Source: Podospora anserina
Taxonomy: Eukaryota
NCBI GenBank assembly: GCA_017654855.1
Contig: CM030332.1
Coordinates: 7,316,001 to 7,380,000, forward strand
Length of the DNA: 64,000 bases
Direction of reading: 5' to 3'
Shown piece after piece: positions 14,460 to 57,073 of the stretch. Below the pieces are notes generated by a model. That model was given only the letters and a program-made list of their open reading frames with translations. It did not search any database and was not told the DNA's origin. The position numbers were made by a program, and so were the translations under genes. Every line of letters starts with the position of its first letter. The first letter of the stretch is position 1.

Positions 14460-17400
14460 TTAAAAAGCCAAGACAAGGGCAGCAGCAATAACACCTCCCA
14501 AAACAACCCCATTCCTCCCCGCCCCAGCAGTCACGGGCTGCTGCGTAGCTGAAGCAATAGGCTTGACATACCCACTGCTGTAAGGGAATCCACCCGAGGG
14601 CGTAGGCTTGACAACAACTCCCTCGTCGCCACCGGCAGGCTTGGAAGTAGCAGTGACATCAGGCTTGGGCACAGTGATGATAGTAGTCAACTGCTGGACG
14701 AAGGTCGTGGTGGAGGTCGTCGTCTCCTCCTCAGCAGGGACATCAGTAATAACCTTGATTGCTGGCTTGGAGCTAGTCTCCACGCCTGGAACAGCGGGGA
14801 CAGGAGTAGAAGTGGCCTCCGCCTCGGAGATAGGGCAGACAGTTGTTCCGATTGGGACGACGACAGTGGTGGTGCTACCCGCCGGGCAGTTCGTCACGGT
14901 GGGAGCACACGAGGTGAGGGTGAGGGTCTTGGTGGAGTAGATGGTTGAGGTGGTGTAACCCGCGGGCAGGGAGGAGGAAGAGGTGATGACGGGAGCGTCG
15001 GTCGTGGTGACGGGGCAGACGGTGGTGCCGATGGCGATGGTCTTGGTCACGACGCGGCCGGGGCAGGAGGTGACAGAGGGCTCGCACGAGGTCACGGTGA
15101 AGGTGGTGGTGGAGTAGATGGTGGAGGTGGTGAAGCTCTCCGAGGGTGTGATGACGGGGCCGTCAGTGGTGGTCTCGCTGGCGGGGAGAGTCTCTGTCTC
15201 GCTAGTAATAACAGACCCGGTCTCGCTAGCGGTAGCGCTCTCGATGCTAGACTCTGTCTCGCTGGCAATAACAGACCCGGTTTCGCTGGCTGTAACGGTC
15301 TCAATCGCAGACTCGGTCTCGCTGGCAGTGACGGTCTCAGTGACGGCCTCAGTTTCGCTGGCGGTAGCGGTCTCGATGACAGTTTCGGTCTCGCTGGCGG
15401 TGGCGGTCTCAGTCCCACTGACAACAGCAGACTCGGTCTCGCTAGCGGTGGCAGTGGCAGTCTCGGTGGTCTCATCATCCTCGCAGTAGCTTTCAGTCTC
15501 AGTGGCAGTCTCGCTAACAGTAGTAACCTCAGTCTCGCTAGCGGTCAGAGTAGCACTGGCGGTGATGGTCTCGGCTTCGCTGGCAGTAGCAGACTCGGTA
15601 GCAGACTCGGTCGCAGTGACGGTCTCTGTTCCACTCGCAGTCTCGGTGGCAGTGGTAGTCTCGCTGGTGGTGGTCTCGTCATCCTCGCAATAGCTCTCAG
15701 TCTCGCTGGCAGTCTCGGTGGCAGTGGCAGACTCGGTGAGAGTAGGGCTGGTGGTAATGGTCTCAGTCTCGGTGACAGTGGCGGACTCGGTGACAGACTC
15801 GGTGACAGACTCGGTGGCAGACTCGGTGGCAGACTCAGCGGTGCTGGACTCGGTAGAGATGGTGCTTGTGGTGGTCGGGATGATATCGGTCACGGTCACA
15901 CTCTCAGTCTCAGTACTGGTAAAATCCTCAGTGTAGGTGATGCCAGTAGGCTCAGCAGAGGTTTCAACGGTTGTGGTGGTGATGTCAGGCTCGTTGGCAG
16001 TGATGGTCTCAGTCTCGGTGACGGTCTCGCTGGCAGTGGCAGACTCAGTGGCAGACTCGGTAGAGATGGTGCTGGACTCGGTAGAGGTGGTGCTGGTCTC
16101 GGTAGAGGTGGCGCTGGTCTCGGTAGAGGAGACGGTAGTAGTCTCGCTGGCAGTGGCAGACTCAGTGGCAGACTCGGTAGAGATGGTGCTGGACTCGGTA
16201 GAGATGGTGCTGGACTCGGTAGAGGTGGCGCTGGTCTCGGTAGAGGAGACGGTAGTAGTGCTGGTCTCGGTGGAGGAGACGGTAGTGCTGACAGTGGTGC
16301 TGCTCACAGTGGTGGAAGAAGTGGTGCTCAGGATGGTGGAGCTGGAGCTGGTAGGCTTGGGGATACCACGCTTGATGCAAAGCTTCTGCCCAAGTCCGAG
16401 GATGTTGCAGTTGAGACCAGGATTGAAGGCATTGAGATCGCTGAGATCAATACCGGCACGGGCAGCAATCTGATAGCAGTAGTCACCAGACTTGACACTA
16501 TACTCACGCACGCAAGCGGTCGGTGTGGGAGCCGGGGGCGTGACGGTGTGGGTGTAGCCACCCAAAAGGCTGCGAGCATACTGGTAGTAGTTCAATCCAG
16601 CTGGGCTGGAGCCTGAAACGATGTTGCTCGCGCCATAGGTGGCATCATAGATCATGACACCACCAAATGCAGCCCTGCCCTTGAACTTGTTGATGACAGT
16701 TCGGAGGTTGGTGGGCGTGAGGTAGCCACTCGCCTCACCGTTTTGAACAGCATTGGTACTTCCAGGCAATCCAATAAAAATCTTTGCACCACTGCTGGCG
16801 GTCGATTGGAGATGCGAGGCCCAAGTGTCAAAGTTGTTGTTGGTGACGCCATGGCATCCTGGGTTGTTGTAAAACTGGACGAACAAAAGGTCAAACTTGC
16901 TGTTCTTGATGATGTGCTTCATCTTGTAATACGGATCGTTCAGAGGGCATTCGGGAGCGGCGGTAATCAGGAACTGGCGGTTGTTTGGGTTGAGTTGTGG
17001 TGTCGCCATGAACTGGCGCAGACTGCTAATCATGGCGATATAGCCCTTTGACTGGTTTGCGTCTTCATGAAACTGTTAGCCAATCACGGCGTTATCATGA
17101 GCAGTCAAGGTTAAGCTTACCGTAGCTCTTCTCGATATCGAAGTCAAACCCATCAAAGACGAAGTTCTCCTCGCCCTCTTCGGCATTGAGGTAGTAATCA
17201 TCAAACGGTCTTGGGACGGTGGAGCCGGCGATGCGAGGACCGAAGGCTTGCCACACGAACAAGGCAAAGCGACGTCCTTCGGCTTCGTTGCTGAGGTCGT
17301 AGTTGGCGGTCGTCTTCCACTCTCCACCAATGGAGAGAAGGACCTTCTTGCCCTTCTTTTGGCAGTATCTGATGTCGGCAGCGATCTTTCCGCAGTCGGA

Positions 17401-20600: not shown

Positions 20601-23294
20601 CGACTTCGTCCCAACCAACTTCCGCATTGCCGTCATGAAAGGCCTTTGCCAGTCAGGTACTTTAGGCTTGCCTTTAACATCGCACAGACGGAAAGACGAT
20701 ACAATTAAGTCCATTGTTACGGTGCCCTTCTGGTTCCAGACATGCCTTTGTTGAACTTCAAGGAAAGCATCGTTGAGCAAATCCATCTCTAGGTATCTAT
20801 ATGTTGGATACCTAGTCGATGAAACTTGCCGAAGACTGCTCCGTTTTCTCAATAGTGTATCTGTTTAATTGCATATCAACCAAATGAAAAATATTGTTCG
20901 GGATTTAGTTCTTGATCAGACGCCTTGCGTTGCCTGTATGTACTTGGCTAATCTAGTTTTGAAGACCCAGTACCTTGTGATCTGTTTACCTTATCACCCT
21001 TCGCGATAAATCTCCGTAAAATCCCCATACGATAATGGGCATTGGTTGAGAGACATACTCTTCAGAATTTGGCAGTTTGGATGAAATTCGCGGTAGCCAA
21101 TCACTAAGGTGACACGCAAATCCTATGCCTACAAGACACCTCGAAACGGGACTTCGAGATCGAGAATATTTTGCAAATATATAATGTTTTGTCGCAGGGT
21201 TGTCTTGCTGCAGATGCAAGCTATCGGATGTTCACCTGACACCCTAAAATTGATTTATGTTCTGACTTCAAGTCGAGATCTTGCTCTCATCGTATTTACC
21301 TCAACGGGAGCTTGGGTGTGATGTTTCGACACCAACTCAGCTCGACTTAGAACAGACGTTCCGATGTGACTTGTATTATGGACGTCTATCAAGTAGTTGT
21401 AGCAGTCTCGGAGTTTTATATTGGTTCCCCGAGAAGTCGAAATGCTTTGGACTACAGAAGACAGGAAGAGAACACCCTGTGCTGTAGGTAACAAGTCCTC
21501 ATGTGTATCCCAGCTCTGGCGCTTGGATATAGTTCCCTATCGCCTCTTGAGGAAAGTCGCTGCTAGTTGAGTGCATTTTCTTAAATCCCTCGAACCTTCT
21601 GGGCATTTGTCTGGAGAGAAGCTCATATATGTCTCGCCTATCCTGTGTCGTGCGAGCCATCTCACATGGTCACGGGCAGAGAGATAGGTTACATCGTCCA
21701 ACGCAAGAACAGCTCAGCACAAACAGACGTCACTGGCCCAGGGCCCAGCAGATGGCAGAACGTGTGCATGTCGGCATACGATCAGTGGTGTGACATTGTC
21801 TCTCACCCCAAACAATCTCATGAGACTCCAAACCAAGGTCGGAGAAACTTTTTGAGATAAGAAATTGCAGAAAACGCCGCTTGCGCCATAGGGCTCCATT
21901 CTGGGGTTCGATATTGCAGAGGTGTTGTCGAGTGACGGACGTGAACTGGTTTTCGTCCAAACTGCCAAGAGGGGTAGATGGGATGACGGCAGACCGTGGC
22001 ATCCAAGACCAGGAAAGCCCTGGTACCACGACGACCCTGAAAACAACGACCAGCAAGCACCAAAACACCACGGTCGATCCCAGCTCGCCATTCCAAGGCG
22101 TGAGGTGATCGTCATAGGAAAACAGCAAACGCAGCTTCATGCGGCCCAGGGTCTGTAGGGTCGAGTCCCCGATCTTGATTCCCCCGCATAAACGACAGCA
22201 CCTGGTGGTCAGTCATCCCCCATCGCCCTGTCAAACTAGCCACTAGCTAGCGAACTGGACAGTTATTTTTGGTGGATCAGATGGGATGCCCGGCATTGGG
22301 CGGGGAATCTCTAACGGCGCTCGCTCGGCAGTTTTCTTGATCTTTGAAATTCTCTTGCAGATGGCAAACAAGCGCTAGTAAAACGGCGAGAAGTCTTTCT
22401 TTTGCCCCTTTAGATAGTCTCACAGCAGTTTTCTTGTGGTACAGTCTGCATGGCCGGTGTATGGCATCGCAGCAAATTTGTTGGGGCACTGGCGAATGGT
22501 CAGGTTCAGTGGCTGTGCGAGGTCGGTTGTTCCCCTGAAGAAACGGCCCCGGCCAATCATGTGCTGCCGAAGTGGCTCGCGGCGGCTGGGCTGGCTTGAA
22601 GGGCGCCACATTGAACCAATACGATGGACGAATATCGCAAAGCTGCATAGTAACAGAATCTCTTGCTGCACAAGAGGAGAGGACTTTGTTATGATCCATG
22701 CTGTTGTTGAGGCTTTGAAAATGAACGCTTCTTTCCGATTACCGTCACCTGATCTGATTGCTGTTTCTCGTTGGTTGCTGATGTGAGGTCGTGCTGATGT
22801 TGAGGCCACCTGCCCGTCCGGTCCAGTTGGGGGGTGATACGAAGAACGAAAGGAGGCCCGCCTCCCGAAGAAGCAACCCCTGTCATCATCTTGCGGGACT
22901 CTGGGCTCTCCGTGCAACCTGCTGAACAAGGTGCCACTCACAACTTTTCCCGTCCTCTTCAAATCTCAAATTCATTCGCTTCCCCTTTCGTTTTCACCCA
23001 CGCTCGTTTCTACCTCGTTTTACCACGTTATTTCTAATTTGGCACGCACGCACGCCGCTCCTACAAAGCTTTGTCGAGATATCAGGATAACTGGGTCACA
23101 CGGGCCTTTCATTTCGTCCACATTAGACGGCTTTGTAACGGTTCCCGTCGCGCCTTGGCCATCTCCTTCGAAACCGTCACCTCGCACGAGACCAATTTCG
23201 AAAGGACGCAACATCGCTGGGAGACCGACCCTATTTAATTTTGGTAAAAAAACAAAGACTAGGTGTCTGACTGTCACGGACTCAACCAGCCACG

Positions 23295-24101
23295 ATGCAT
23301 ATCAGAAAAGCCCTTCAACTATTCGTTTTGGGGCTGTCGGCCGCCTCTGTCGCCGAAGCTACGTTTGTGAGCCCAAGACTCGCCCGACATGAAAGAGCTC
23401 TCCAGCGAAGACAAGACGATGGCGGCGATGCGCCGCCCAACTCTGCCTCTGACGCTGCCGACGAACCACCGGCGCCATCGACGTCAGATGCCCCAGTGAC
23501 AACACCAAGCACTAGCTCAACAACACCACCACCACCCGTCACATCATCAACCCCGCCGCCTCCTGAGGAAACTTCCATTTCGGTCACTTCCAGCACCACG
23601 ACGACGACAACCCCTCGGCCAGGCAACTCCGTCTCTTCCTCCTCCACATCGTCGACCACCGCCCCGCCAGACCCCGACACAAGCGATGAGCCCACCACCC
23701 ACGTCCAGACCATCACCAGAACCATCGTGACTACTAATCCCGATGGTCAGGAAACGACGGTCATCGATGAAGTTGTGACTACCTCGACCTCGGTACCACT
23801 GCCAAACGGAGGTGGCGGTAATGGCGGCGACACGGATATGTCCACAACGACGCGCGACACGGTGATCGGCGTGGTGGTCGGTGTCGGCGGCGCTGTTGTT
23901 TTGGCTGGTCTGGGTTTTGTTGCCTGGAGGATTTGGGGCAAGAAGAAGCAGCAGGAGGAGCAAGACACCTTGATGGACGATTACAGCGCGGTTGGCGAGA
24001 AGCCAGACACGATTGGATCGACCAGCACACGCACTCCCTTTCAGAGCACACTCGAGAGCTACCACGCGCCAACACATGTCAACACGGCATCGAATTTCTA
24101 A
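23295..24101 (+). CDS. Mid2-like single-pass cell-surface sensor, 268 aa
   Basis: Signal peptide, dibasic LQRR|Q site, S/T/P-rich ectodomain, TM helix VIGVVVGVGGAVVLAGLGFVAW followed by RIWGKKK, and a short cytosolic tail (PFQSTLESYH). Confidence 0.8.
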   Translation: MHIRKALQLFVLGLSAASVAEATFVSPRLARHERALQRRQDDGGDAPPNSASDAADEPPAPSTSDAPVTTPSTSSTTPPPPVTSSTPPPPEETSISVTSSTTTTTTPRPGNSVSSSSTSSTTAPPDPDTSDEPTTHVQTITRTIVTTNPDGQETTVIDEVVTTSTSVPLPNGGGGNGGDTDMSTTTRDTVIGVVVGVGGAVVLAGLGFVAWRIWGKKKQQEEQDTLMDDYSAVGEKPDTIGSTSTRTPFQSTLESYHAPTHVNTASNF

Positions 24102-25277
24102 CGTGCTCTTCTCACGGCCATTTTCTTACCTGTCGATAATTCTGCCATTTATGGGAAGCCTCCCGGAGTTTTTTTTTTTTTTTTAACGGTTGCAACAACT
24201 ACAACATCATCACTACTTTGCATGCTCAGTGGACAAGGACGATTGTTTTCTTGTCCTCGCCGCTTGAAACGAAACCCAATGTGTATCATGGTGGAGGACT
24301 AGACAATGTGTTGTTTCGCTCAGGAGCTCATCACAAGAAGCGTTTTGCCTTTTTTTCTCTCTATCGGGTGGTTGGTTCTGGTCAGCATAGATTGGGAATT
24401 TATCCTCGGCGTGTGGCTGAGGGAGGGTTGTTTATTCGTTACTCTCCTTTTACATTATTATCTTTGTTTATTCCCCATCCTCAAAAAGTAACGACATGGC
24501 GTTGTGAAAGAGAAGTTACCGTTTAATACCAATATCGACTGCCTACCTTCCTACCATCTACGCTAGTAAAAATTATGAAAATCTCGGTTCTCGAAGCTTT
24601 TTGAGATGAAGAGATGAACGAAGTGAAGCCGAAAGAGGAGCTTATGACTCCCCGCTTCATTCAAACTTTTTGAAATGCCAGAAATTGTCGGTTGAGAACT
24701 AGTGTGCGAACTTTGTCTGAATGGCAGGTGTCACTCTCATCTGATCTTGGGATTTGGTTTGGTATCGAGTCAGGAGCTTGAAGCCGGCGCCGGCGCAAAT
24801 TCCGGGGGCGATGACGGCATTGGTGATGCAAGGGGCATTTCTCTCGAACTTGATTCAAGATTTTTGCGTCATGGGAGATCACGTGCATCGTTCTTCTCGG
24901 GGGAAAAGTTCTTGATTGACGGGTGGTGCTCGAGCCTCGTGGTAAATCATGGTTGTCTCAGACAGGTTTCAGGGTGACTTTTTCTGTGGGAATAGCTCCA
25001 TGCGCAGAAACGGGGATTGGGTTGGGGTTTGACAGCGCGGGGTAGACATGCTGTAGTGGTTTAAGTTTAATATCTTTTGAGGCTCGTCTTTTACCATCGA
25101 AACCTGGGGTTTTTGATATTGTTGTTGTGTATTTTGAAGGGTTCACTTCGTCCTCTCTTTGTGATATTGTCAGTTCGTCCATCCAGGTGATGGTAGGTGG
25201 TCTAGTTCTTCATTTCTGAATAGCATTTTTTTTTTGTTTGATCAACGGCATTTCTTTGATACCCCTTTTCTGTCAAA

Positions 25278-26104
25278 ATGCGTTACCTCTCCTTTTCAGT
25301 TTTTGCCCTAGGCATCACCACCACCTCCGCCACCATCCTCGTCTCGGACGGACACGGCGGCGTCATCCACAACCCTCGGTACACCCACCAAAGAATCGAC
25401 AGCCGCAACGTCAAGATCGACAACCTCGCCCTCCACGCCGCAGTCCGAAGGTTCAACGTTGAGCAACTCCACAACCTGACGAGCACTCTCCCCGTGTTGA
25501 TACCCCGACAGGCGGCAAACCTCCAGGTTTTTACCTCCGCTTTGGGGGGGGCTACGGCGCCTGCTATTACCAACTCTGGTGATCCTGACAGACCGTTTGC
25601 TGTCGACGGGGATACCTTTCCCGATTTTGCGACGGCGAGCAACAGGGCTTGTGACAACCAGAAGAATGCCTGTGCCAAGATTGCGAATGAGGGGGGCCAG
25701 AGGGACGGGGAGTTGACGGTGGGGGAGTGTGACAGGCAGATGGGTGAGTTTTGCTTACTTCACACTTACACTGGAGAGGGATAGCATCCCTAGATAGGGC
25801 TGACATAGGAATAGAACAATGCAAGAGTGCGGCGCTTTCGGCAGCCAACAGATCTTTTGATGGCGCCGCGGGTGAGCAGCAGCAGCAGCAGCCACCGCCG
25901 CAGCAAGGGGGCGGTCGTGGTGATGATGGAGGACAGAGGCAGGATCCGAATCGGGGGCAGGATCAGGGACAGGATCAGGGACAGGATCAGGGACAGGATC
26001 AGGGACAGGATCAGGGACAGGATCAGGGACAGGAGGAACAGGCGCCGCCCGAGTCGGTGCTGGTTAGTTCGGATGAGAATTTTGATTTCTTCTGTGATGT
26101 TTAG
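25278..26104 (+). CDS. Secreted Cys-containing protein of unknown function with QDQG repeats, ~251 aa, 2 exons (25278-25743, 25815-26104)
   Basis: Hydrophobic N-terminus. Domain ANLQVFTSALGG...PFAVDGDTF...RACDNQKNACAKIAN...CDRQMEQCK. Intron GTGAGT...GCTGAC...TAG (71 nt) joins two ORFs from the track in frame. Confidence 0.8.
25958..26029 (+). repeat. Perfect 12-bp coding minisatellite (CAGGATCAGGGA)x6
   Basis: Six identical units read directly; they encode (QDQG)6. Confidence 0.95.
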
Positions 26105-27645
26105 GCCTGGGAATTCGGGAGGCGTGGGAGACTGATGTTTTTTCTTTGGTGGGTATTTACAGTAAGGGAATCGGGAAGGCAATGGTTGGTGTAAGTGACG
26201 AGGAGGCCGGGATTGGGCAACATGGAGCACTGTTGTTTCAGACAACTCGCCATTGGGCACGGAATCGGGCGTGGGAGGCGGTTTTCCGCCTTTTTGTATA
26301 TCAATGGTATTATTGGGTATAGGGTGTTTATGAAGATGTCACGAAGGTCCGGGTTTTGCTCATCTGAATTCCATTCCATGAGGCGAGATGGCTATCCCTA
26401 CCGTTGCTGCACGAGTCGCTGCCCGATATGCATCACCGTATGCATCACCGTCAAAACATACAGAAGTGGCGGGACTGCCAAACGTACGGCCGGGTCCCAT
26501 CAAACAACTCATTGTTTCGGGAAGTCTGGCTGCTTCGGCCGGCCTGGCTGCCGATAACCAACCCCCCGCGATCTTCGGAACGGACCGAGACACTGCTGAT
26601 TGTACGGAGTACGGTTGAGCATAATCATTTCATCTGCCAGCATTTTGAAAGGTAAATTGAAGATGTGATGCAATTGGCTTCCGTGTGAGTTCAAATGTGG
26701 ATCCCGCCGGCCTGCCTTAGTGCCAAGGGAAACCATGCGCGCGTGGCCTATGCACAATGTCGTGGCCAGTCGGTTGTCGTTTTGATGGCACGCTTTCCGT
26801 GCTGTTTTGGTTGTTTTCTGAACTTTTAAACTTTTTCGGGGCGAGCCAAGTATAGTTCTAGAGAGCTGGTAACCTGGAAGTTGAGGAGGTAAAAAACCAG
26901 CCGCCGTTGCAAAACCTGGAGAAAGTTCTACAAGTTGTGTCTTTTGCCTATGGTTTCTTTAGCATCAAGAACCCTTACGATCAGCCCCTGTTTGCTTCTT
27001 CAGGTGTCATCCAGCCAACAGCACCGAAATTACGGATTGGTCTGCTTCGTCCAGCAGTGGAGCGCGACAAGGCCCCGGCTCATTAAAGCAGGTGTTCCCA
27101 GTCCGAAAAAATAATTGCTAGTTGGCCCACGACACCCTCTCCTCGTCCTAACCCGGTCTCTCCACCTCCCCTCCCCATCCCCATCTCGAGCCAGACACAC
27201 GGTCATTCTCGCGTCCCTTTTACAGCTGCAAGCTGCCGAGTCGAGTCCATCGCCAGCCTGCCCTGTTGCGCATCCATGTGTTTGTGCGGATCGAACCCCT
27301 TTACCTTTCTTGTCGCTCCTTTAGCCTCAGTTTAATTATTTCCTTGGCCATATTCACTTCGCCTGCCGACAGCCAACGTCGGACACGCGTCGTCGCGTCC
27401 AGCCCGCCCGACCGTTGCTGCATCTGTATTCCCTAGCCACCTCCCAGGTTTCCCCAGGAAATCCGACGTGGGAGTTTTGGGCTTGTTTACGGAGACGATA
27501 CTCGTCCCGCCTAGATAATAATCGAGGACCAGTAGCAGACGACGCTCAACTCGTCTGCGCTGGCTCTCGGCCTGGTGAGTAACGCACCTAAACCCAATTC
27601 CATCGCTGCCGTCCAACCATCGACCACGCTGAGCCACCCACGCAT

Positions 27646-30600
27646 ATGTCCCGGCAGCCAGCTCACCCCCGCCACCACCAACATGTTCGGCTAACATTGG
27701 GTGTCGCTCCCAGTTTCCTAAAAACGTCTTCCTTAAAGTTGTCACCACAGACTCCTCCTCGTGCACTGGCACAGGACGGCCCTCTCAAGCCGATCTCCAA
27801 GTTGCAGGCCTACCCACCACCATCGATTGCATCGTCCCCTGCCCTCTCGAGCGCTTCCACTGCCGACGGCGAGGCATCCCCCGTACTACCGCCTCTGCCA
27901 GTACCTAGATTACCTGAACGAGTCCGTGGTCTCTTGAGGACTCCACCGCCCGCCGCTGAGAGATCAGGAGACGAGGATAGCAGGGACGAAGGCTTGGCTC
28001 CTGGCGCCACCGATTGGGGTTCCCCCTACCCCTCGAACCTTCGAACCGACAGCACCTCTAGCAGCGACCTTTCTGGGGACTCTCCCATACCAATCCACCG
28101 CCTTCAACTACAAACCCCCTTCTTGCGTCCCGCCCCGCTCATCGAAGAACCGCAGCCGGAGCCCCCACGGCAGTCAGGCCTGAGTGCGGCTGCAGCTGTG
28201 CTTGCGAACCGAGCCAGGCGCATTGCGCACGGAATCACAGAGGATTGGATACGTCAGCACACGGCTGCTGGAGGTGACCAGGAAAAACGACATTGGTTCA
28301 GTGACGGAACCGGCGATAGTGAGAACTCTTCACTGAGCGGCTCATTTTCCGGTGAGGAAGCTGCGTGGTTGGGATACGACGATATCAACCTTGAAACCCC
28401 ACGACCAAGAAGTCGCGAGACCGATAACGGACGGTGGCTGTCATCCGGCCTCGACCGCAGAAAGCAGGCCAGTAACGAAACGTTGAGACAATCCCACCTG
28501 GACCGTGCAAAAGAAGCCCCGGCCGCCAAAATGGTGTCTTCCGACGAGAGGTCAACGCCCGATAGCGTGGGCAACCGCGGAGTCACAACTGACTCGTTGT
28601 CGGCCACTCAGGGGCGTCTCAACCTCCCTGAGAGGCCCGGCACACCGAAACTGAACGTAATCAGCGGATCGGCGAGTGTGACGCAGACAGAGCATAAGGC
28701 GCCATCAACACCGTCAAGAGCGGCTGTCAAGCGCGCGTCTCTGAGTGCGACCCCCCGCGCATTCAGGAAAAAGGTACCTTGGAAGGGTAAAAACATCATG
28801 GTATGCTTCCCGAGCAACGACCGACGGGGTCAGCCCGGCGGGCCTCCAATGCCCCTTACCGAGACCCAGGTGAAGGGCATGCTTCGAAGTTGGGAGGAGC
28901 TTGGGTACAACACCGAAGGATTCGATTTAGCATCGGATGCACAAGAGCTTGGGACTGCGGAGCATTCACATAGTAGGGGATCTTGGCCCGACTTTGATGA
29001 TGTCGCACGGGAGCGGCAGAGCGGCAAATACCCAATAGTCCTTCCCGATCTCAATGGTATGTTCTCGGATGCGAATTGTGCGCTTTACTGCTGCTTTGTT
29101 TCTAACATTGTTCACCGCTTGCAGCCTGGAAGAAATACGTCGACGAGCTCAACGAGGCCAAACTCCGCGCCCTGGGCGTTTCGTTTGGCGATGAAGAACC
29201 TCCCCTCCCTCCGCCGCCAGCGATCTCCCCCGCTACGTCGATGAGCCGGCAAACGTCGATGCAATATCCGCCCCTGCCATTCTCCCCACCGATTCCAACG
29301 TCCTCCGCATCGAGCAACCAAGCAGTCCCCGGCTTCCCATTCAACGTGCCGTTCGTCACCTCTGCCGCCCAGAGTCCAGGTATCCCGGCCGGCGCATCAC
29401 CGGGGCCGTTCAACAAGTTCAATCCCCGGGCGTCTATCTCGATCCCTTCGCCACATGGGTGGTCTCCCTCCATCATGCTCGGGCACCGTGTCGGCTCGCC
29501 CTCGCTCGCAAACCTCAGCGCCATGATGTCTCCTACTTCCCCATTCTCTCCTGATGGGATGGGCCCTGTCGGGCCTGTTGGACACCAACGGCATCAGTCA
29601 CTACAGTTCCCTGTCTTGCCTCACCAGTTCCAAGTGCCAGTCAGAGCCTCGCCGCGCCTGCAGGATCTATGCGAAATCGACGAGGAACCGGCAGAGGAAG
29701 AGGCATCGAAGCCCCACGAGGCCGGCTTTGTGCACCACAACGCTAGTGATAGCTTGCAGAAGGAAATTGACGAGGCTGAGTATCACCTCGAGGAGCAGAT
29801 GCGCTCCCAGCTCGACAATGACGAAGACTACAGCCCCCACAACGAAAACGATAAGGGAGAGATGCCTGCATTGCCGTCTGTGCAGTTCGCGGCTCAAGCC
29901 CCTCAGTTTAGTCAAGCGGATGGTCTTGTCTTGCATCACCCCAGACCGCACAGCCGAGGTCACTCGCTCTCTCAGAAGTTTTATACCGAAGACGACGCAA
30001 CTGTCGAGGGTGGCTACAGACCCACGCTACAGGGCATTAGTTCGCACTTGTCAGAAGATTCCGAGATCGAGACCAATCCGAGTAATCTGGGAACTCCTGT
30101 TCAGAACTTTGATTTTGCCAAGATCGCCCACCAGCGGACGCTGTCGAATGACAGCAACCCATGGCAACACAGTGAGCCCGGAAGGCCGGCTGCTAACGGC
30201 AATCACCAGCCACGCGTAAGCCACGGCAGCAAGTCTTCTTTCTCGAAGCTCAATGTTGAGGCTCCGGAGTTCAAGTTCAAGCCCGCGAACTCGTTCACTC
30301 CAGGTAACGGGTTTGCCTTCTCAAACTCCTCGTTCGCGACCCCTGTCTTCAACGCAGGGTTACCGCAGACCGTTCCCAATGCGTTTGGTATGGCGGCTCC
30401 GTTGCCAGCGCCCGTTCCAGCTCCTGTGCCAGCTCCTGGCCCTACCAAGATTAATGTCAACGCTGCGCCCTTTTCGCCTGGATCGAGCGACTTTAGCTTC
30501 TCAAGCTCAGGCCCCAAGTTCAGACCTGATGCTCCCGCCTTCACCCCAACCGGCATCCCCGGAGTGACTGCTGGTTCCGTGAAGAGCACGAGCAAGCCTG

Positions 30601-33600
30601 GCTCCATCTTTGGAAGCATTGATCTTTCTGCCGCGGACATTGTCAAGCCCGCGAAGAAGTCGCAGGCCGTTCCTATCACCAAGCCTGAGGATGAACAGCC
30701 CGATGAGGAGCGTGAGGGTGGCAAGGCCCCTGGTCAGTACACTGGCGAGGAGACACGCAGCAAACGAGCCAGGTCTTCGGTTGCTCCCGATGATGATATT
30801 GCTCTCTTTGCGGAACGTACAGACGACCCTACCTTGGTCGTCGCCAAGCCAGAGACGGTTGCCGAAGACGATGGACCGGTGGAGGACAAGTCCTTCGATG
30901 AGTCGAACAACGGCCAAGAAGACACTGCGCAGTCATCCATGGTCATTTCAGCAACACCGGATACCGAGGCTGCAATCAGTCCCTCTGAAACTTCACCGGA
31001 CCAGGCGACTGTTCCTTGGGCGCCATTCGAGTTCAATAAGCCGACTGAGATGCAGGCATTCGCCGAGGCCGCGCCATTCGAGCCTGGAAGCTTCAAGGCT
31101 GGCCATACGAAATCACTTTCAGCCACGGCCAAGGCCTTCGTTCCTGGCGTGCCTGTGTGGGAAGACGATAAAGATACCACTCCTGAAGCTACACCTATCG
31201 TTGCCAACGACGAACATTCAGGACTCAGTCAAGATGCCGCTGAAACAGTCGTCGAGTCTATCGAGCAGCCAGAGGAGGACCTCGAAGTGCCGAGTCCCGC
31301 TGCCACCCGATCACTCGACAAGGAACTACCCCCAGCTGCTAAGGGGTTGGCCGCGTCCCGTTATGCCCGCTCCTCCCCTCCACCTCCGCCTCCACCCAAG
31401 CAAAGCGGGCTCTCGGCCTCCCGGTTTGCCACCGCTCCCTCCCCGAGCAACGAGCAACCACAGCAACAAGTTTCCATGCCTGCTTCGTCTACTGAACTTG
31501 ATGACAAGCCCTTGCCCTCAGCTCCGGCGGAGGAGGCTGCTGGGGATATGCTTGCCGAACCCACCATGGCTGATCTGGATGAGATCATGCGTCGACTCAA
31601 CGAAAATCCGGATATGGGTGTGAAAAAGACGTATAACAACGAGCACCAATGGGCCCATGCTGACCCAGCTCCTCCTGGGGGAACGTCATTGGAGGTTCCA
31701 CTTGACGCGCCTCTGCTCCGCAGCGAGGCTCCTAGCCCTAAGCCAAGCAGCCGTCAGTACGATGAAATGGCCGACTCCCCAAGGACGTTGTCTGCCGAGC
31801 CTGAAGATCCGTTCAACGATCAAATGCAGTACACAGAGGGTGCAGTTCAGCGCCTCAATGGAAGCGAGAGCCTTCCTGCTAGCGACTGGGAGGGCACCTT
31901 CACAGAGGACGAACAAACGAAGCTTGAGTCGCGTGTCAAGTTCTTTGACGGCCGTGTCAGCGATCTTGTTGATGGACTGCTTGCTGCTCGCCTCAAGCCT
32001 TTGGAGCAGCTTGTCTCTGGTCTTGCTCGCAGCGGAAAGCACCTTCATTCTTCCCAGCCACGTCGCAGTGTGTCGGATACGGAAGATGGCGACGACGAAG
32101 AGGATGGGTTGACTCATCTCAGGCGCCCTGCGAGCCCCCGCCGGGACCGCAGAATGCAGCAAATTCGTGCGGCCGTTTCCGAGGCGCTCGTAGCTCACCA
32201 AAAGATTCCAGCAGAATCGGCTCGTTCTTTGGCGGGCGAGGACAATTCTCGTGTCCTGTCTGTTTTGGAAGAGATGAAGACACAACTCAATGTCAGGGCC
32301 GACATTGGGAGTATCGTGGAGCAGGTTATTGAACGGCGTATCCCGCCCGCGGCTGTGGATAAGGATCATGAGATCAGCCAGTTGCACGCTCGGCTTGCGG
32401 CTTTGGAGCAGCGTCTTCGTGATAGCGATGCCAAGCTGGCAGCTGAAACTGCCGCTAGACGGGCGGCCGAGGATAGTGCCGCCAGGGCTAGCCGTGAGCT
32501 TGAGAATGCGGCTACCAAGATTGATGTTGAAATGATGAACAAGAGCTCCTTGGGGCAGCGCATCAACGACCTCGAGGAGCGTGTGCACCACGCCGAGCAT
32601 CAGGTGGAGGAGGCAGTCAACGGTAGAAGGGCTGCTGAAGATCGTCTTGCAGAGAACCAGCGGTTGCTTCGCATCTCTTCAGAAGAGGAGACTCGTCTTC
32701 GTGAACACGTCGATACTAAGGATAGCGAGATGAACGAGGCGCGCAAGGAAACTCTGCACTGGCGGGGTGAAGCTACCCGTATTGCTACTATTGCTCAGAG
32801 ACGGGATAAGGACCTTGCTCAGGCGCTTGACGAAAATAAGGCGCTGCACAAGCTCATTGAGACCCTTGGCACCCAGGTCGAGGAGAACGAGCGTGTCCGT
32901 GACAACTATCGCACCAAGTTGTTCTCTCTCCAGGAGGACATGGCCAAGGCTGCAAAGGATATTGCTGAGGAGAATGCCCGTCATGCCAAGCGGGAGCAAG
33001 GCCTTGTCGCTCGGCAGGAGGTTCTCGAGGCTAGACTTCAGGCCGAGGCTCGAACTCGCGAGCGCATTGAGACTGAGCTCCAGAGGCTGGAAATGGGCGA
33101 GCGCCAGGGCATGCGCGCTGTCGCTGAGTGTAAGAGACTCGAAAATGTTCTCGCCGAGATGCGCACCGAGAATCACAAGTTGCACCAGAGCGCCCTCCGC
33201 TACCAGGCCGAATTTGAAGAGGCTAGGGAGTCTGCTGCCCGTGAGGTTCAACGCACTCGCGATGCTATGCAGAGCGAAATCGACGCTGCCAATCACCAGG
33301 TCAACGTTGCTCGCAACGAGCTTGAGGACCAGATGGCGAGACTTAGAAGCCAGCTCGACCAAGTCAAGATGGATGCTGACACTTCCAAGGCGCGCCTTGA
33401 GATGCTCTTGGAGGAAGCTCAAACCACCAAGCAGACCGAGCTTGAAGCCCTTGCTGAGAAACATCAGAACGAGATGGAGGACCTGCAGGCACGCTACGAC
33501 CGCCAGCTCAGCAACACCAGAGAAGATGCCCACCGCACTGAGCAGAACCTGCTGGAGCGTCTTAGCATCTCCACCTCCAAGTCCGAGCACCTCCAAGACA

Positions 33601-34598
33601 AGGTCGCCCATTTCGAGGAGAAGCTTGAGATTGCCAAGGAGGCTGCACGGGCTGCTGCTCAGGCTGCCAAGTCGTCTGTTGGTGGTGCGGAATTACCTGC
33701 CCAGGTTGGCGCTTCCGCGGCCAGGGAATTGGGAGTTCCAGAGAGGATTTCGCCCCAGGCTCTGCGCGAGTCCATCATGGTCTTGCAAGAGCAGCTCCAG
33801 GAGCGTGAGCAGAGAATTGAGGAGCTTGACCAGAAGCTTGCCAAGGTTGATCCCGAAGCGGAGACCAAGATTTCCAAGCGCGACGACGAGATCATCTGGC
33901 TCCGTGAGCTTCTTGCCGTCAGACACTCGGATCTGCAGGACATTATTGCTGCTCTCGGACGTGAAGATTACGACAAGAACACGGTCAAGGATGCGGCGAT
34001 CCGTCTCAAGGCCAACCTCCAAATGGAGGAGCAGGAACGCGAAAGGGCACTCAATGGTGGTTCTGCCATCAACCTGCCCAACATTGCCGCCACCATTCGC
34101 GAAGCGGCTACTCCCCGCGTTGCCCAGGCTGTTGGTCCTTTGGCGGCCGCGTGGGGTAACTGGCGCAGGTCGAGAGATCCGTCGTTTGGTGCTGCCAGCA
34201 GTGTACAGTCGCCCACCGGGTCGACTAGTGGCAGCAGCACCACACCATCCAAGAGCGGCCCTACTGCGAGCGGCTTCCTCGGGGGTCTGTTGACACCTCC
34301 TGCCTCCAGTCTTAGACAGACGCCAACCGCCCCTCCAGTAAAGCAGCCGACTGCTTTCTCGAGCACCGGACGCCGCTTCACTGCCCAGGACCTTGCCAAC
34401 CGACCTCTCGGGCCAGCTTCTGCCGCCGTGCAACAAGCGCAACTAGAGACGGCAGCTGCTGTCCCCGCTCTCCCCTCGGTGTTGAGCACCCCGCCCCGTC
34501 GCACCGTCTCTTCCGGACCAGTGACACCGCCGATGCGGGACAACGCCTACGACTCCGATGCGCAAGACTTTGACGATGCCGAATTTTATGAGGAATGA
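27646..34598 (+). CDS. Large (~2294 aa) scaffold protein: disordered N-half with four PAM2-like motifs and a long C-terminal coiled coil (Upa2-like architecture); 2 exons (27646-29056, 29125-34598)
   Basis: Intron GTATGT...TCTAAC...CAG (68 nt) gives LPDLN-A-WKKYVDELNEAKLRALGV. Heptad E/K/R/A/L-rich region at ~32360-34050. Motifs KLNVEAPEF, KINVNAAPFSP, KFRPDAPAFTP, SLSATAKAFVP. Start Met uncertain. Confidence 0.85.
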
Positions 34599-43489: not shown

Positions 43490-46400
43490 TCAAGCTCTTA
43501 GAAACCCAGGACTCTGCTCACTCGCCCCGCTCACCCCGGTCCTGTCGGCCCAGGTGATATCCACCACCGCCCTCTCCGTATCCCACGGCACAACGCTCGC
43601 CCACCTCGGCCACCGCCTCACAAAAACTCTGTTCACCGCCCTGGCCAGGGCACTGGCCGGAAACGCGAGAACCCCCCAGTTCGCCCACGCCGCCGCCCTC
43701 GTATTTTTGCTAGCAAACGGCTCGAGCATATCATTGACGAATGCCCTCCTCCAGTTGTTATTTGACAGCCAGATCCGCCGTTCTTGGTCCAGCGCTAGAT
43801 ACAGCACCGAGGAGAAAACAGTCGTGAGGATAGACAGGCAAATGATAAGCGAGGCGGGGGAGGCAGTATGGGTAGATAACTTGAAGGGTGCCGGTCTGGG
43901 AGGGGGGGGAGGAAAGGATGCATCGTCGGCAACAGAGGGGGCGGGGGTGGGGGTTTTCCGGAAGGCAAAGGGGTCGACTGGGGGGGTTTCTTCCGTCTTC
44001 GCTTGTGGCTCTGGCTTGGGGGGAGGACCGCCATCGCGGCGCATGGGGAATTCGGTACTTTCTGACCTCTCGTCCACGTCGGAAGCGGAGGCTCTTCTGA
44101 AGGGGTTGGAGAAGGAGTCCAGGGAGGGGATGTACGATGCTGTGGAGAGGCGGCGCGGTGGGGATGAGCGTTCACTCCTCGGACTCGGGACGCTGGTGGG
44201 GGTTCTGGGACGGGAGGGGGGGACTCTGGTCGAGCTGGTGGGGGGGGAAGGGATGTTGAAGGTAGGAGGGGTGAAGGTAGGGGGGTGGTAGTTTTCGGCG
44301 TAATTTTTGGGGAAGAAGCGCCAGTGGATGTACCTGAACAAGTATTTCACCCAGGCGAAGGCGTAGCCGACCATGTCGAAGGGGGTGGTGAGGATGAGGA
44401 GGATGGTGGAGTAGAACTCTGCTGGGGCGGAGAGGGCAAAGAGGATGACCCAGAGGAAGGAGGTCAAGATATGGCAGATGACTGTGGGGACGGTGGTGGA
44501 GGCGGAAAAGACGCCATGGCCGTGGTGGCCTTGACAAGTGCGGCGGCTTCGTCGGGTTGACGTGCGGTTGCTCGCCAGTGAAGGGTCGTCGGGCTTCACT
44601 GGCTGCGTTTCCGCGTTGGTGCCCTCTTCAATGACGGTCACCATCTGACCATGCCCGCAACAGCCGTCACTGAGGGCATTGTAATACAGCTTTGGCGCGA
44701 AGTACTTGAGCAGGGAGCAGAAACAAGCCGCCTCGGCGTGTTTGCTGTGGGTTTTGGTAGAGTAAAGATGCATCACCTTTTCCCGAATCAGAGACTCAAT
44801 ACGCCGGCGGCGGGTGGCGTATTGATCTTCAACAGCATCCTGGTTGACGAGGATGTTGGTAGTGACGACTTCGAGCGGCGACTTGAGCGTGTCTTTGAGA
44901 GACAGGTCCTCGACAGGGTCGTGACGGAGAATTTTCTTGAGTCGTCTCACGCGGGCCTCAAGTAGAATCTTATCGTCCATGTCATTCCTGTCGGCGATCT
45001 TCTTCTTGAGTGTCTTGATCAGCTGCTTGAGCGGTTCAATATAATCAGGTTTGAAAACACCGTCCACCCATTCGCTGTAGTCATTGACCCATTTCTCGAG
45101 CTCGTTAGTGATCCCACTCAACTTGACCTCGCGCTTGATGACTGGGGCAACCTCCCATACCAGATCCTCAAAATAGTCTGCGCTTCTGCCGCTGTCCAGA
45201 TGTCGCTTTACGCAGCCGTCGACGTAGAACTCCTCCTCTGTCGAAAGTTTCGTTCCCAGCAGTTCCGTCTCAAGCTCATTATACCTGGTTCTCAGCTCGT
45301 CTCCTTCTTCGTGTCTCTTGATCACCACCTCCAGAGCATCCGCGAACTTGGACGTAAGATAGCGCTCATATTCTATCGTGCCCTTCCGGGCCTCGATTTG
45401 CGAGGCGATACCCTGTTTGCATTCTTGCAACCAATTCAAGCACAGGACCGCGTCCCAGCCCGGGTTGACGCATAACTGAAATTCCTTGTACGCTCTACAA
45501 ACGTAGAAAAGCTCGTGCTCCTTCCGGCTAGTGGGGGCGAGAAGAGTATAAGGGGGCTGCCCGGTGACCTCGAAAACTTTCTTTAAAGCCGTCTTCATCT
45601 CTGGCTCGTATCGTTGGAGCAAGGGTTTCAGGAATGAGTTGTCTAGCTTTCGATTGTCTTCATCGGTAACCATAGTGACGTGTCCCAAGATTGTGATGAA
45701 CCCTTCAAGCACCTTGTATAGATCAGGGTTGAAACGATCGTCGAACGGGAAATCCTCTTCAGGGCCACGGGGAGTTGAGGGGGAGGAGCCACCGGAAGCT
45801 ATGGAAGGTGATTTGGCGTGGGATTCCTTGGGCACTGAGGGCTTTGGAGCCTCTGGAGACTTCTTAGCATCGCCGGGTGACTGCGGCTCCCTGGGTGGGG
45901 ATGAAAGAGCACCCTTCGGCGATGGAGAATTCCCCTCCTCAGACGCGCGTATGACCGCTTCGAGCTTTGCAAGATTCGCAGAATGAACGCTGCTTATCTC
46001 ATGCTCGAATGGATAAGTGTTAGGAGATGTCTCTGGATCCCCCGTTTTCTCGATGTCAGTACATATAACCTGTCCGATGGGAGATGGGATACTCACCCGG
46101 TGCATTCTTTTCAGGCTCGTCCACGAAAACCAGGTTAGGCGGTGCCTTCCTCTGCGTCACACGTCTGCCCGTTATCAGCGGCGACCGTTCTTCCCTTGGC
46201 TTCTTTGAAGGAGTCACGGGCTCGGGCTTGCGCCTGGAAGCCTTCTCCGCAGTGTCTTTCCGTCGGTACTGATGCTGTAGCCGTTCAATGCTGGATGCAA
46301 TCATATCTCCCTCGTGCCTCAGAGCAGTAGGCGACCCAAGCCCGGACCGCACGCGGGACCGCCACCCAAGAAGCATCTCGTTGAGCCCTTCCAGCTCTTT

Positions 46401-47972
46401 GATCATGTTCCGAGCCGCATCACGAGTTTCTTTTGCCTCCTTTAGGCCCGGCTCCTGCTCCTCTTTGTCTTTCGCCGGGCTGTTGAACACATCGTACATG
46501 GAGTTGACCAGATCGGCCAGCCCGCTCACAGTCTCGGGAGACGGATTCTGGTTCTTCTTGAGTTTGCCGGCCTGTTCCAGGATCGGTTTGGCCTTTTCCG
46601 CACTCTCACGATGCTGATCTACGTTCGCTTCGGTCTGGTTGATCAACTGGTCAAGCCTGTTGAGCTGGGGAATGTATGCTCTGCTCGCCCTGCCGAAGTT
46701 CTCCACTTGCTGGCGAATTTGATTGATCTGGTTGTCGCTGTCAACCTCGAGCCGCCTGACCTTCTTTTCCAACTCCTCGGCTCGCCGCTTGACTCTGTCG
46801 TACTGTTCCCAAAGGTCCTTCAATTCTTGTTCCTTCTTTTGAAGCTTCCCAGACATCTCTGACCGCTGCTCTGACAGCATATCCCGCAAGTGCCGAATTT
46901 CGGCTTGCACCTTCTCCTTCTCCTTCTTGAGGGTTTCTTCATTCCCTTCTCTCAAGACCTGCATGGCAGTTTCCAGGTGGTTACTGGCGGCCTTTATATC
47001 TTCATTTTCGGCTTTCAACACGGCGTTCTCATCCTTCAGCTCCTTCATCCACTCTTCATATTGCGCCTTTTGCGCTTGGAGACCAGCGGCAGTCACTGTG
47101 ACAGATTCGATGGCACCCGTTGAAGTGAGCTCGGCCGCTGGGTTGATAGCCTCGAGAGCAGCCCTGAGTCGCGCAACCTTGTCTTCCAGTTTCCCGACCC
47201 TGGCTTGCGCCGCTTCTGCTTTGTCTTCGGCACGGGTGATATTTGCCAAGTAATCGTCCCGTTCTTTTCTCGCAATATCGTCGCTCATAGTGTGGACAAC
47301 CCGGCCGTCTTCGATCACGGTGCCGCCAGGAGTTGTCTGCAGACTCTTCCTACTGCTTAGAGTCTGGTTCAACCTCCGATTCTCGACCTGTTTGACTCTC
47401 AGTTGTTGGGTCAGGTCCTTGACCTGGTCCTCCAAGTCATGGTTCATGTCCTCCAAATTTCCGATGAGATCCTCGGCCTCTTTGTTTTGGTCCTTCAGGT
47501 GGTAGTTTTCGTTGGTCAACACTGAATTCTGTTCCCTCAACACGTCCCGTTCCACCCGCATATCCGTCAGCTTTTTACACATAACGCTCCCGCTTCGCAG
47601 AGTGTTCATCCAGCCTTTCATCGCACGGTCGTAGTCTAGTTCGAGAAATCTGAAGCACGTAACAATAGGCTCATTATCGTTGTAGTCAAACCATTTGCCA
47701 ACCACCTTGCTTGCTTTGATACTTTTCCAGAAGCCCTCGATAGGAGGATCGGTGGCAGTGGCCAGCAGCTCGCTGAGCCTTGACTCCCCGGCTTTGCTCC
47801 ACGAGCTGAGGTTCCAAGGATCATAGGAATACCTAATTTTATATATGCTCTCGGATTCTCTGGCATTTGGACGCCTAGGTCGAGCTGGCCGGCGTGGGGG
47901 GGTGCTCATGGTTCCCATCTCTGGTGAAGCGCGCGCTTCCAGGGCTTGCGAGTCATGGTGGTCCCCAGACAT
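43490..47972 (-). CDS. Large (~1472 aa) coiled-coil protein with C-terminal transmembrane segments, unknown function; 2 exons (47972-46097, 46032-43490)
   Basis: Two overlapping long ORFs are joined in frame by intron GTGAGT...TACTGAC...CAG (64 nt; NAP-E-TSPN). N-terminal heptad region. Hydrophobic segments ILTSFLWVILFALS, STILLILTTPF and LIICLSILTTVFSSVLYLAL. Confidence 0.8.
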
Positions 47973-48479
47973 TGTCGCAGAGCTTTTTGCTGGTTGTAGA
48001 CGTGTAGAATAAGCAGGCGGCTGGTAACCAAATAACTCGCACCGAGAAAACAAAACCCGGTGACATTTGCGAGAGCGAAGGTCAGGAGCTTCATATCAAG
48101 CAGCACCGAACAAACACGGGAAACTGGTGGACTGCACAATGAACGGAGCAACTGGACAAAGAAGCGTTGCGGTCTTTTGCCGCCCAAGTTTCGCGACATC
48201 ATCGCGTTACAGACAAAGACTTTGGGCCTGTAGATGCTTGCGGATGCAGGCCCAGAGCTTTCCACTCGAACAACTAAAACAAAGAACACTTCCCCCGCCC
48301 GATACCGGTCAGATTGTAAGTAGCTGTACCAAAGCGGCTAACCAAACACGGGCAACTTACTGGTAACTAATTACACGGCCAGGAATTTCCAAAGCCATAG
48401 CTCTTCCTCCATACGTACCACACAGCAAAAATCGTCCACAGCTCTGGTGTTGCAAACCCTCAGCACACTCAATGTCGCG

Positions 48480-49837: not shown

Positions 49838-50331
49838 TTTGCTAGAGATGGGATCCAAGATTAAGCCGACGATACGGCGAATGTGGTGAGTTTGGTGAAG
49901 CTTGAGCGAAAGGAAGGATAGTATTTATTACAATTATTGAACGGTAATTGAAAGTTGAGGTTGACTGGTGACGGGAACTGAAGAGGGGAGGTGGTATATC
50001 TGAAGTTGGAAGACACATTAATGAGTGGGAAGACGCGATTGCTCGCCAAGGAAAGTTTAGGCAGCTGAAGTGGGGTGTTGGTTCAGCTGGAGAAGTGGGG
50101 CAGAGCTTGTGAGCTGGAAGCGACAGGGTTCTTTTTAGTGGGCGTTTGCCCACTGAAGGGCATCTTACAGCGTGACGTTGCAGCTGCTGCCACCCGTTTG
50201 CGCAACAAGTGATTCCATCGCCGTGCAAAGACAAAGTTGCGCTTTGGTCTCCTAACGTTCTAATCAGAGAGGCGAGCTGATTGAATATAGAGAGAGACCG
50301 CGAGCTCTCCGTCACTCCCGTCGTTGTCGAA

Positions 50332-57042: not shown

Positions 57043-57073
57043 GGCAGGCAGGCAGGCAGGCAGGCAGGCAGGC
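57043..57073. repeat. (GGCA)n tetranucleotide microsatellite
   Basis: ggcaggcaggcaggcaggcaggcaggcaggc read directly. Confidence 0.85.

Follow-up and report, generated by a model that had tools for sequence, protein, structure and literature searches.

How filamentous ascomycetes attach messenger ribonucleoprotein particles (mRNPs) to moving endosomes is an open question. Rrm4 and Upa2, core factors in basidiomycetes, are both reported in the literature to be missing there ('most likely' so in the case of Rrm4), yet particles of Pab1 and of Ssd1/GUL1 ride on endosomes in these fungi, and in Aspergillus nidulans the protein PxdA is needed. The question is raised here by a large gene in a stretch of 64,000 nucleotides (nt) of Podospora anserina DNA (NCBI GenBank assembly GCA_017654855.1, contig CM030332.1, positions 7,316,001 to 7,380,000 of the forward strand), the whole of which we refer to as the window and number from its first letter. 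A first-pass annotation, made from the letters of this DNA, had described the gene at 27646-34598 as encoding a candidate mRNA-transport scaffold with four PAM2 motifs, a coiled coil and a Trp-containing tail, and had proposed that it may be an unrecognised homologue or analogue of Upa2 of Ustilago maydis; its statements that Upa2 is essentially restricted to basidiomycetes and that Rrm4 is reported missing from filamentous ascomycetes agree with what is published. We find that the gene is, to judge from its sequence, almost certainly the Podospora orthologue of PxdA, an early-endosome tether, and on balance we think it probable that PAM2 motifs in this orthologue recruit Pab1 mRNPs to endosomes.

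The locus comprises one large gene on the forward strand, whose product is 100% identical to PODANS_1_19980 of P. anserina S mat+; a single residue separates the window protein from its database cluster representative. A phmmer search with the C-terminal 1200 amino acids (aa) against 1.84 billion cluster representatives gave 325 matches at E <= 1e-3, with 308 at E <= 1e-10 and 272 at E <= 1e-30. Names were looked up for 30 of the best 150 of these 325, and every named one belongs to the Pezizomycotina (Penicillium, Thermomyces, Coccidioides, Paracoccidioides, Arthroderma, Arachnomyces, Polytolypa, Cladophialophora, Aureobasidium, Glonium, Blumeria, Vezdaea, Sarea, Caeruleum and Pycnora); the named matches in a search from the deepest-branching representative are likewise from the Pezizomycotina only (e.g. 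Geoglossum, Lachnellula and Botrytis). A further search, from a Penicillium family member, listed AN1156.2 of A. nidulans FGSC A4, a protein of 2236 aa, and PxdA was published as AN1156 with the same length (Salogiannis 2016) and described as confined to the Pezizomycotina (Songster 2023). BLASTP of AN1156.2 against the Podospora protein yields a single full-length collinear alignment of 2300 columns (557 bits, E 1e-166, 29% identity). It is because of this alignment, the shared CC3 patch with its Arg (see below), and the finding of named family members in the Pezizomycotina only that we assign the gene as the PxdA orthologue, and the protein, being the orthologue of a studied endosome tether, is not the unrecognised one that had been supposed.

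The two proteins are of one size class (2236 aa in A. nidulans and ~2290 aa in Podospora). In each, a long disordered N-terminus precedes a C-terminal coiled coil of ~565-600 aa, which is followed by a short tail; each retains the critical Arg within its CC3 patch, the order of the four PAM2-type motifs is the same, and PF26916 is listed in the precomputed annotation of both. They differ in that identity is only 29%, that motif 1 of Podospora ends in F (EFKF) whereas that of A. nidulans has the canonical EFxP, and that Podospora motifs 2 and 3 lie farther from the consensus. The experimental evidence, for roles in peroxisome, Woronin-body and SsdA-mRNP hitchhiking, comes from A. nidulans PxdA.

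A different reading, in which the protein is myosin-II-like or a structural coiled-coil protein of the spindle pole body or septum, draws on its automatic name and on its nearest language-model neighbours. Sordariomycete orthologues are auto-named 'Myosin class II heavy chain', as the first-pass annotation had guessed, and carry a precomputed match to Pfam PF26916 (DUF8275 in Pfam 38.1); PF26916.1 also stands in the precomputed annotation of the 100%-identical database protein, and our local Pfam scan of the window protein did not report it. ESM Atlas feature neighbours of the protein include SnaD, PACT and ApsB-like coiled-coil proteins at scores of 0.87-0.90, but these scores are below the level that the Atlas tool itself treats as more than a lead. 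The Pfam scan found neither a myosin motor nor any other myosin domain in the protein, on which ground the 'myosin' label is rejected; a sequence search of solved structures gave 0 matches; and the orthologue PxdA has been localised to early endosomes experimentally. We give this structural reading almost no credence.

PxdA resides on early endosomes, where its coiled coils 1 to 3 (CC1-3, aa 1466-2116) are reported to be both necessary and sufficient for endosome localisation and for peroxisome hitchhiking, and it is bound by the phosphatase DipA. The equivalent part of the Podospora protein was modelled with AlphaFold2 (AF2) from the last 794 residues (window 32214-34595) and 44 aligned sequences. 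The model contains three long and three short helices (model residues 50-166, 180-344, 353-486, 514-544, 549-582 and 588-614), mostly with predicted local distance difference test (pLDDT) values of 80-90, and includes a 449-residue stretch without proline; extending over ~565 aa, these helices bear out the ~550 aa of coiled coil that had been proposed to follow the disordered region. Within CC3, Songster et al. 2023 report that PxdA aa 2034-2058, around R2044, are conserved in all 15 homologues examined, and an R2044P substitution is reported to take PxdA off endosomes. In our set the corresponding stretch is almost unchanged among the named taxa (14 of 14), with the Arg present. The Trp-containing tail AAWGNW lies at 34146-34163, exactly where it had been placed, and a pattern A[WF]GxW[RK] recurs in 100 of 126 full-length members of the family at a median of 155 aa from the C-terminus; in the model it appears to behave as a conserved linear motif and not as part of the fold.

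The N-terminal 1465 aa of PxdA are reported to be dispensable for peroxisome hitchhiking, and deletion of aa 1-816 is also tolerated, so that the N-terminal region has been left without an assigned function. It is here that the four PAM2-type motifs are found, exactly at the coordinates given by the first-pass annotation. The pattern [LIVMF]xxxAxxFx[PF] is observed four times in the protein against 0.16 expected (P ~2e-4), and a stricter form ending in P three times against 0.13 expected (P = 0.001), each from 5000 composition-preserving shuffles. Against the Pfam PAM2 family PF07145, which has a gathering threshold of 20 bits, motif 1 scores 22.9 bits as a 32-aa peptide, 21.4 in the 1823-aa exon protein and 19.9 in the 2289-aa database protein, and motif 4 matches weakly (12.8 bits, E 0.1). 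By these profile scores motif 1 is a strong PAM2, the only one of the four that is, and the Pfam model is less sensitive than the pattern for these motifs.

The motifs are kept across classes of the Pezizomycotina, a property that the first-pass annotation had named as a check on its proposal. All four are retained in 22 of 22 diverse Sordariomycetes, and A. nidulans PxdA has four matches in the same order, at aa 831, 878, 915 and 1110, each of the form L[NS]xxAxxFx[PF]. A wider survey took in 124 representatives of at least 1800 aa among the 150 listed (the best 150 of the 325 phmmer matches): at least one match is present in 121 of the 124, at least three in 89 and at least four in 56, and in the three representatives without a match motif 1 ends in Y or L. 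In a 20-sequence multi-class alignment A845, F848 and P852 of motif 1 and F915 of motif 2 are invariant, and N842, E847, A912, P917, A935, F938, P940 and L1130 are conserved in at least 90%; these positions, the Ala, Phe and Pro of the motifs included, belong to the very few such columns in a disordered region of ~1,500 residues.

The type of the motifs bears on the choice of partner. Devan et al. 2024 report that binding to the MLLE domain of Pab1 requires a Leu followed, at a distance of seven residues, by a Phe (L132 and F139 of the Upa1 PAM2), and that the PAM2L ligands of the Rrm4 MLLE3 domain have a [DE][DE]FxY core and do not bind Pab1. A hydrophobic residue and a Phe at the seven-residue spacing are present in all four Podospora motifs, no [DE][DE]FxY core is present in either the Podospora or the A. 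nidulans protein, and FxY does not occur anywhere in the Podospora disordered region. By sequence, then, the motifs are of the PAM2 and not the PAM2L type, and the spacing together with the missing PAM2L core leads us to predict the MLLE domain of Pab1/FabM as their partner; this fits the reported absence of Rrm4 from the Ascomycota, where according to the literature Pab1 is the MLLE protein that remains. Direct binding of the PAM2 motifs to Pab1 is a prediction that we consider likely to be right.

The same hydrophobic-x3-A-x2-F-x-P elements could instead be short linear motifs for a partner other than Pab1, with the mRNPs arriving via DipA, SsdA or a bridging factor. Motifs 2 and 3 do not score with the Pfam PAM2 model, each of the motifs sits amid further conserved Phe-rich elements outside PAM2 (FxFS, WxPFEF and xFxP), and mRNP hitchhiking needs DipA as well, with unknown bridging factors drawn in the model of the authors who reported it. 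However, motif 1 is a textbook PAM2 that passes the curated Pfam threshold, the four motifs of A. nidulans all fit L[NS]xxAxxFx[PF], the Leu/Phe spacing is the one described as crucial for MLLE(Pab1), and Pab1 is the very MLLE protein left to ascomycetes without Rrm4. We regard a non-Pab1 partner as distinctly unlikely, and continue with Pab1 as the predicted ligand of the motifs.

A role in endosomal mRNP transport, as proposed by the first-pass annotation, has experimental support in the A. nidulans orthologue. A 2026 preprint reports that PxdA is required for hitchhiking of mRNPs containing SsdA and FabM, the poly(A)-binding protein: deletion of pxdA nearly abolishes SsdA-mRNP movement, and FabM puncta co-move with SsdA. 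Its authors leave open whether PxdA contacts mRNP components directly, and the word PAM2 does not appear in the passages of that preprint that were consulted. A second 2026 preprint, in a single sentence, attributes "PAM2L motifs" to PxdA. Shuttling of Pab1 and GUL1 on endosomes has been reported from Sordaria, which is related to Podospora. Much of the scaffold idea is thus already in circulation through the two preprints; a physical link from PAM2 through Pab1 to PxdA was not found in print in a limited literature search.

In the mechanism that we propose, the PAM2 motifs in the disordered N-terminal half would bind the MLLE domain of Pab1/FabM, and the C-terminal half (CC1-3) would serve as the arm that engages the endosome and the peroxisome. 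The protein is probably dimeric, and an endosome-bound rod of this kind would present as many as eight sites for Pab1, capturing poly(A) mRNPs. Recruitment of mRNPs by the N-terminal arm would then be independent of peroxisome function, and the protein would combine the roles of two U. maydis proteins, Upa2 as a multi-PAM2 scaffold and Upa1 as an endosome anchor. Upa1 is, similarly, an endosome-resident protein with a PAM2 motif for Pab1, but it is reported to bind endosomes via a FYVE domain and Rrm4 via PAM2L, whereas the Podospora protein has neither a Pfam FYVE match nor a PAM2L core. The classical PAM2 proteins of PF07145 (ataxin-2, PAIP, eRF3, Tob and GW182) are alike in that motif 1 scores above the gathering threshold of their family; they differ in the number of motifs and in context, nearly all PAM2 proteins having one motif and only eRF3 and Tob two according to Jankowski et al., so that four in one protein are exceptional, and here they are attached to an organelle tether.

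Several observations weigh against this account of the gene. First, the dependence of mRNPs on PxdA was seen with full deletion alone and extends to DipA, and the link between PxdA and mRNPs could therefore be indirect. Secondly, immunoprecipitation of PxdA followed by mass spectrometry of one excised band is reported to have yielded DipA, with FabM unmentioned in the main text. Thirdly, the PAM2 motifs of Upa2 are described as functionally redundant, being dispensable for growth and shuttling, and PAM2 binding may likewise be redundant or not rate-limiting. Fourthly, Pfam support is uneven: motifs 2 and 3 have no PF07145 match, motif 1 alone among the four reaches the gathering threshold, and only six of 20 family members match PF07145 at E <= 0.01. 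Finally, endosome localisation and the requirement for peroxisome and mRNP hitchhiking come from A. nidulans only, and in the stored 2236-aa AN1156.2 the critical Arg is residue 2045 against the published 2044, an unexplained offset of one residue.

The relationship to Upa2 itself is of particular interest, and we compared Upa2 (UMAG_10350) by its published layout. The architecture that prompted the first-pass proposal, i.e. several PAM2 motifs in a disordered region followed by a C-terminal coiled coil and a Trp motif, is real. A preprint describes Upa2 as a protein of 2121 aa in which a first PAM2 stands at the extreme N-terminus and three more fall within aa 834-1216. Its effector domain is placed between aa 339 and 599, its coiled-coil dimerisation region lies within aa 1712-2121, and its binding is reported to increase with the number of PAM2 motifs; a GWW at the very C-terminus is essential for endosomal localisation, for which the last 163 aa are sufficient and which is mRNA-dependent. 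In the PxdA family a folded domain occupies aa ~366-486, the PAM2 cluster extends over aa 839-1139 (aa 831-1121 of the A. nidulans protein), and the helices over aa ~1545-2109. The two proteins resemble each other in size (~2,100-2,300 aa) and in plan: each has four PAM2 motifs within disordered sequence, a functional region near aa 340-600, a cluster of PAM2 near aa 830-1220 and, towards the C-terminus, a coiled coil and a conserved Trp motif. Upa2, too, is reported to be found on early endosomes and linked to Pab1-mRNP transport. They differ in that the GWW of Upa2 is at the very C-terminus while the WGNW of the Podospora protein is ~150 aa from the end, and in that Upa2 is described as reaching endosomes in an mRNA- and Rrm4-dependent manner whereas PxdA does so through CC3 and also tethers peroxisomes. 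No GWW is present in the Podospora or the A. nidulans protein, and one of 126 family members has a GWW, at aa 97.

These correspondences raise the idea that a single endosomal mRNP scaffold of the dikaryan ancestor gave rise to both PxdA and Upa2, as orthologues that have diverged beyond recognition by BLAST. Their layouts are collinear at nearly equal coordinates (with PxdA family members of ~2240-2290 aa), their ranges are complementary (Upa2 in Basidiomycota only, PxdA in Pezizomycotina only), both occupy early endosomes, and mRNP transport depends on each of them. Moreover, sequences in the PxdA family change quickly (29% identity across two classes of the Pezizomycotina), and BLAST negatives across phyla are for that reason weak evidence against common descent. 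On the other side, published searches at the level of BLAST were negative both for PxdA homologues in U. maydis and for Upa2 orthologues in the Ascomycota. Of the phmmer matches, just 53 fall between E 1e-30 and 1e-3, too few to accommodate a large second family easily, and among the best 150 of the 325 every one given a name is from the Pezizomycotina. The PxdA family has no C-terminal GWW, the single instance in 126 members being the N-terminal one noted above, and the extreme N-terminal PAM2 and mRNA-dependent localisation reported for Upa2 contrast with localisation of PxdA through CC3. In the ESM Atlas the nearest clusters are those of the family itself, generic coiled-coil families and two unnamed clusters in which 19% and 31% of members have PAM2; as none of these carries a taxon record, they say nothing about Upa2. 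We consider common descent unlikely, and a functional analogy, in which the protein works like Upa2 plus Upa1, is much likelier. Of the 'homologue or analogue' that had been proposed, the analogue is supported, membership of the Upa2 family is not, and the C-terminal GWW is missing.

The PxdA family also contains a small folded domain ahead of the PAM2 cluster. It ends in an invariant KLRALGV and has invariant W, E, L, R, A, L, G and V residues, and an AF2 model of a 767-aa fragment from an orthologue predicts three helices and a beta-hairpin for it, at pLDDT values of up to 94, with the remainder of the fragment mostly below 50. A Foldseek search with this fragment model against the Protein Data Bank gave no match at E <= 0.001, and in a wide VIA-align search the best Z was 4.0 with every row lying on the single helix 715-761, so that the domain was hardly probed. 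Conservation in the N-terminal part extends to a WxPFEF motif, to the acidic run SDADDEDD and to a helix close to an EYHLE motif. Songster et al. 2023 refer to 'no discernible conserved domains' in the PxdA N-terminus, and the conserved small folded domain, as predicted by the model, is an addition of the present analysis.

Positions of all of the features of the gene are given in Table 1. The splice that had been placed between ...LPDLN and AWKKYV... corresponds to a GT..AG intron at 29057-29124, which is skipped in contigs of two of four sequencing runs. We note that these four runs were used as guessed RNA ('RNA?'), that none is on record as RNA, and that they were used as contigs only; such contigs reveal splice joints but are silent on minor isoforms, on where transcripts start and on how strongly the gene is expressed. 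In run X1 one contig begins at 26005, passes from 27573 to 27713 with omission of 139 nt, omits the 68-nt intron as well and continues to 35047, closing 3' of the gene with a homopolymer loose end. In X9, from a separate study, a contig breaks off at 27574, and its loose end corresponds to the sequence that follows 27713; this implies the same 139-nt splice, and the 68-nt intron is skipped here also. Neither X2 nor X5 has a contig across the gene.

These joints alter the 5' end of the gene model. Translation from the ATG at 27646 reproduces the proposed spliced protein of ~2294 aa (470 + 1 + 1823 = 2294), but because the contigs skip 27575-27713 that ATG lies within a 139-nt GT..AG intron; the proposed reading frame holds from 27714 on. 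Upstream of the splice the continuing frame reaches a stop at 27516-27518 without an ATG, which accounts for the description of the NCBI model as '5-prime partial'. The next in-frame Met (Met 296 of the first-pass model) is ruled out as the start, lying 3' of sequence that is conserved across classes, and orthologue models from Apiosordaria and Neurospora begin at an ATG in the region equivalent to intron 1. It is possible that the start is explained by an intron-retaining or internally initiated transcript, or by a non-AUG start. The leader exon is unusually long (~1.5 kilobases, kb), the 139-nt intron removes the sole nearby in-frame ATG, and the spliced form leaves a conserved 2,290-aa protein without an AUG coding start.

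Table 1. Features of the Podospora PxdA orthologue, in window coordinates (UTR, untranslated region)
Feature	Position	Strand	Basis and remarks
5' leader exon	26005..27574	+	RNA-like contigs only: X1 26005-27573 joined to 27713; X9 27153-27574
Intron 1, 139 nt, GT..AG	27575..27713	+	X1 joint 27573->27713 (cut +1); X9 loose end at 27574
Coding exon	27714..29056	+	Conserved N-terminal disordered region and most of the N-domain; matches database protein and RNA-like contigs
Small folded N-domain	28756..29186, across intron 2	+	aa ~366-486; conserved in 14/14 named taxa
Intron 2, 68 nt, GTATGT...CTAAC...CAG	29057..29124	+	Sequence; joint 29055->29124 in X1 and X9
Main coding exon, ends at stop codon	29125..34598	+	1823 aa from first full codon 29127
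PAM2 motif 1, LNVEAPEFKF type	30243..30278	+	Best Pfam PAM2 match; A845, F848, P852 invariant in 20 sequences
PAM2-type motif 2, INVNAAPFSP	30447..30479	+	F915 invariant; A912, P917 kept in at least 90%
PAM2-type motif 3, FRPDAPAFTP	30516..30548	+	A935, F938, P940 kept in at least 90%
W-x-P-F-E-F motif between PAM2-3 and PAM2-4	31017..31034	+	20/22 Sordariomycetes; partly conserved outside the class
PAM2-type motif 4, LSATAKAFVP	31113..31145	+	12.8 bits, E 0.1; A. nidulans counterpart at aa 1110
Helical rod / coiled coil, equivalent to PxdA CC1-3	32361..34055	+	AF2 helices; Pro 0.9%, E+K+R+Q+A+L 63%
Most conserved patch of the family, = PxdA aa 2034-2058	33969..34043	+	Alignment; critical Arg codon 34002-34004
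AAWGNWR motif	34146..34166	+	Directly after last helix, pLDDT ~40, ~150 aa from C-terminus
3' UTR to RNA-like contig end	34599..35047	+	X1 contig reaches 35047; T-run loose end at 35018

Upstream of the gene is a separate small gene at 25141-25987 (forward strand), with an intron at 25743-25813 and apparently well covered, the product of which resembles the Cys-rich N-terminal extension (precomputed PF27672) of several orthologue models. Many PxdA-family models (from Aspergillus, Leotiomycetes and others) carry an N-terminal PF00332 (glycoside hydrolase 17) or PF04193 part. The long orthologue models of 2400-2550 aa look like gene-prediction fusions, and we reject N-terminal extensions with PF27672 or PF00332 as part of the protein, the PF27672-like part being the separately spliced upstream gene at ~25141-25987. 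The occurrence of PF00332 or PF04193 parts in many models suggests a recurrent annotation fusion of an upstream neighbour, and hints at conserved synteny with a secreted-protein gene.

Elsewhere in the window, 10 large open reading frames (ORFs) were scanned with Pfam, and Pab1 is not encoded among them. The forward-strand ORF 50485-53169 has PI3K C2, PIK and PI3/PI4-kinase domains, an arrangement to be expected in a class III phosphatidylinositol (PI) 3-kinase (Vps34-like). Class III PI 3-kinase makes endosomal PI3P, and the location of a Vps34-like ORF 16 kb from an endosome tether is probably a coincidence. The forward-strand ORF 59903-64000, which continues past the window end, has WD40 repeats, an RWD domain and a C-terminal RING/U-box-like zinc-binding domain (PF17120). 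On the reverse strand are ORFs for a LysM-domain protein (14460-17075), a Myb/SANT-type DNA-binding protein (10571-12664) and a homologue of Nse4, the Smc5/6 kleisin (48728-49924). ORFs 43490-46156, 46056-48095, 53305-54561, 55988-57322 and 23271-24101 (276-888 aa) have no Pfam match.

For Podospora, the outcome is an ordinary gain in annotation, in that an 'uncharacterized protein, partial' becomes the PxdA orthologue. For the family, the conserved PAM2-type motifs in the part that is dispensable for peroxisome hitchhiking offer a concrete candidate for the physical link between endosomes and mRNPs, one that would separate two functions of PxdA. If PxdA and Upa2 were homologous after all, a dimeric endosome-bound rod with a small effector domain and, in its disordered arm, a PAM2 cluster that captures Pab1-coated mRNAs would be the product of one ancient gene, peroxisome and mRNA hitchhiking would share one scaffold, and endosomal mRNA hitchhiking would be ancestral to the Dikarya and not a basidiomycete speciality; two lines of research on supposed clade-specific inventions would then merge.

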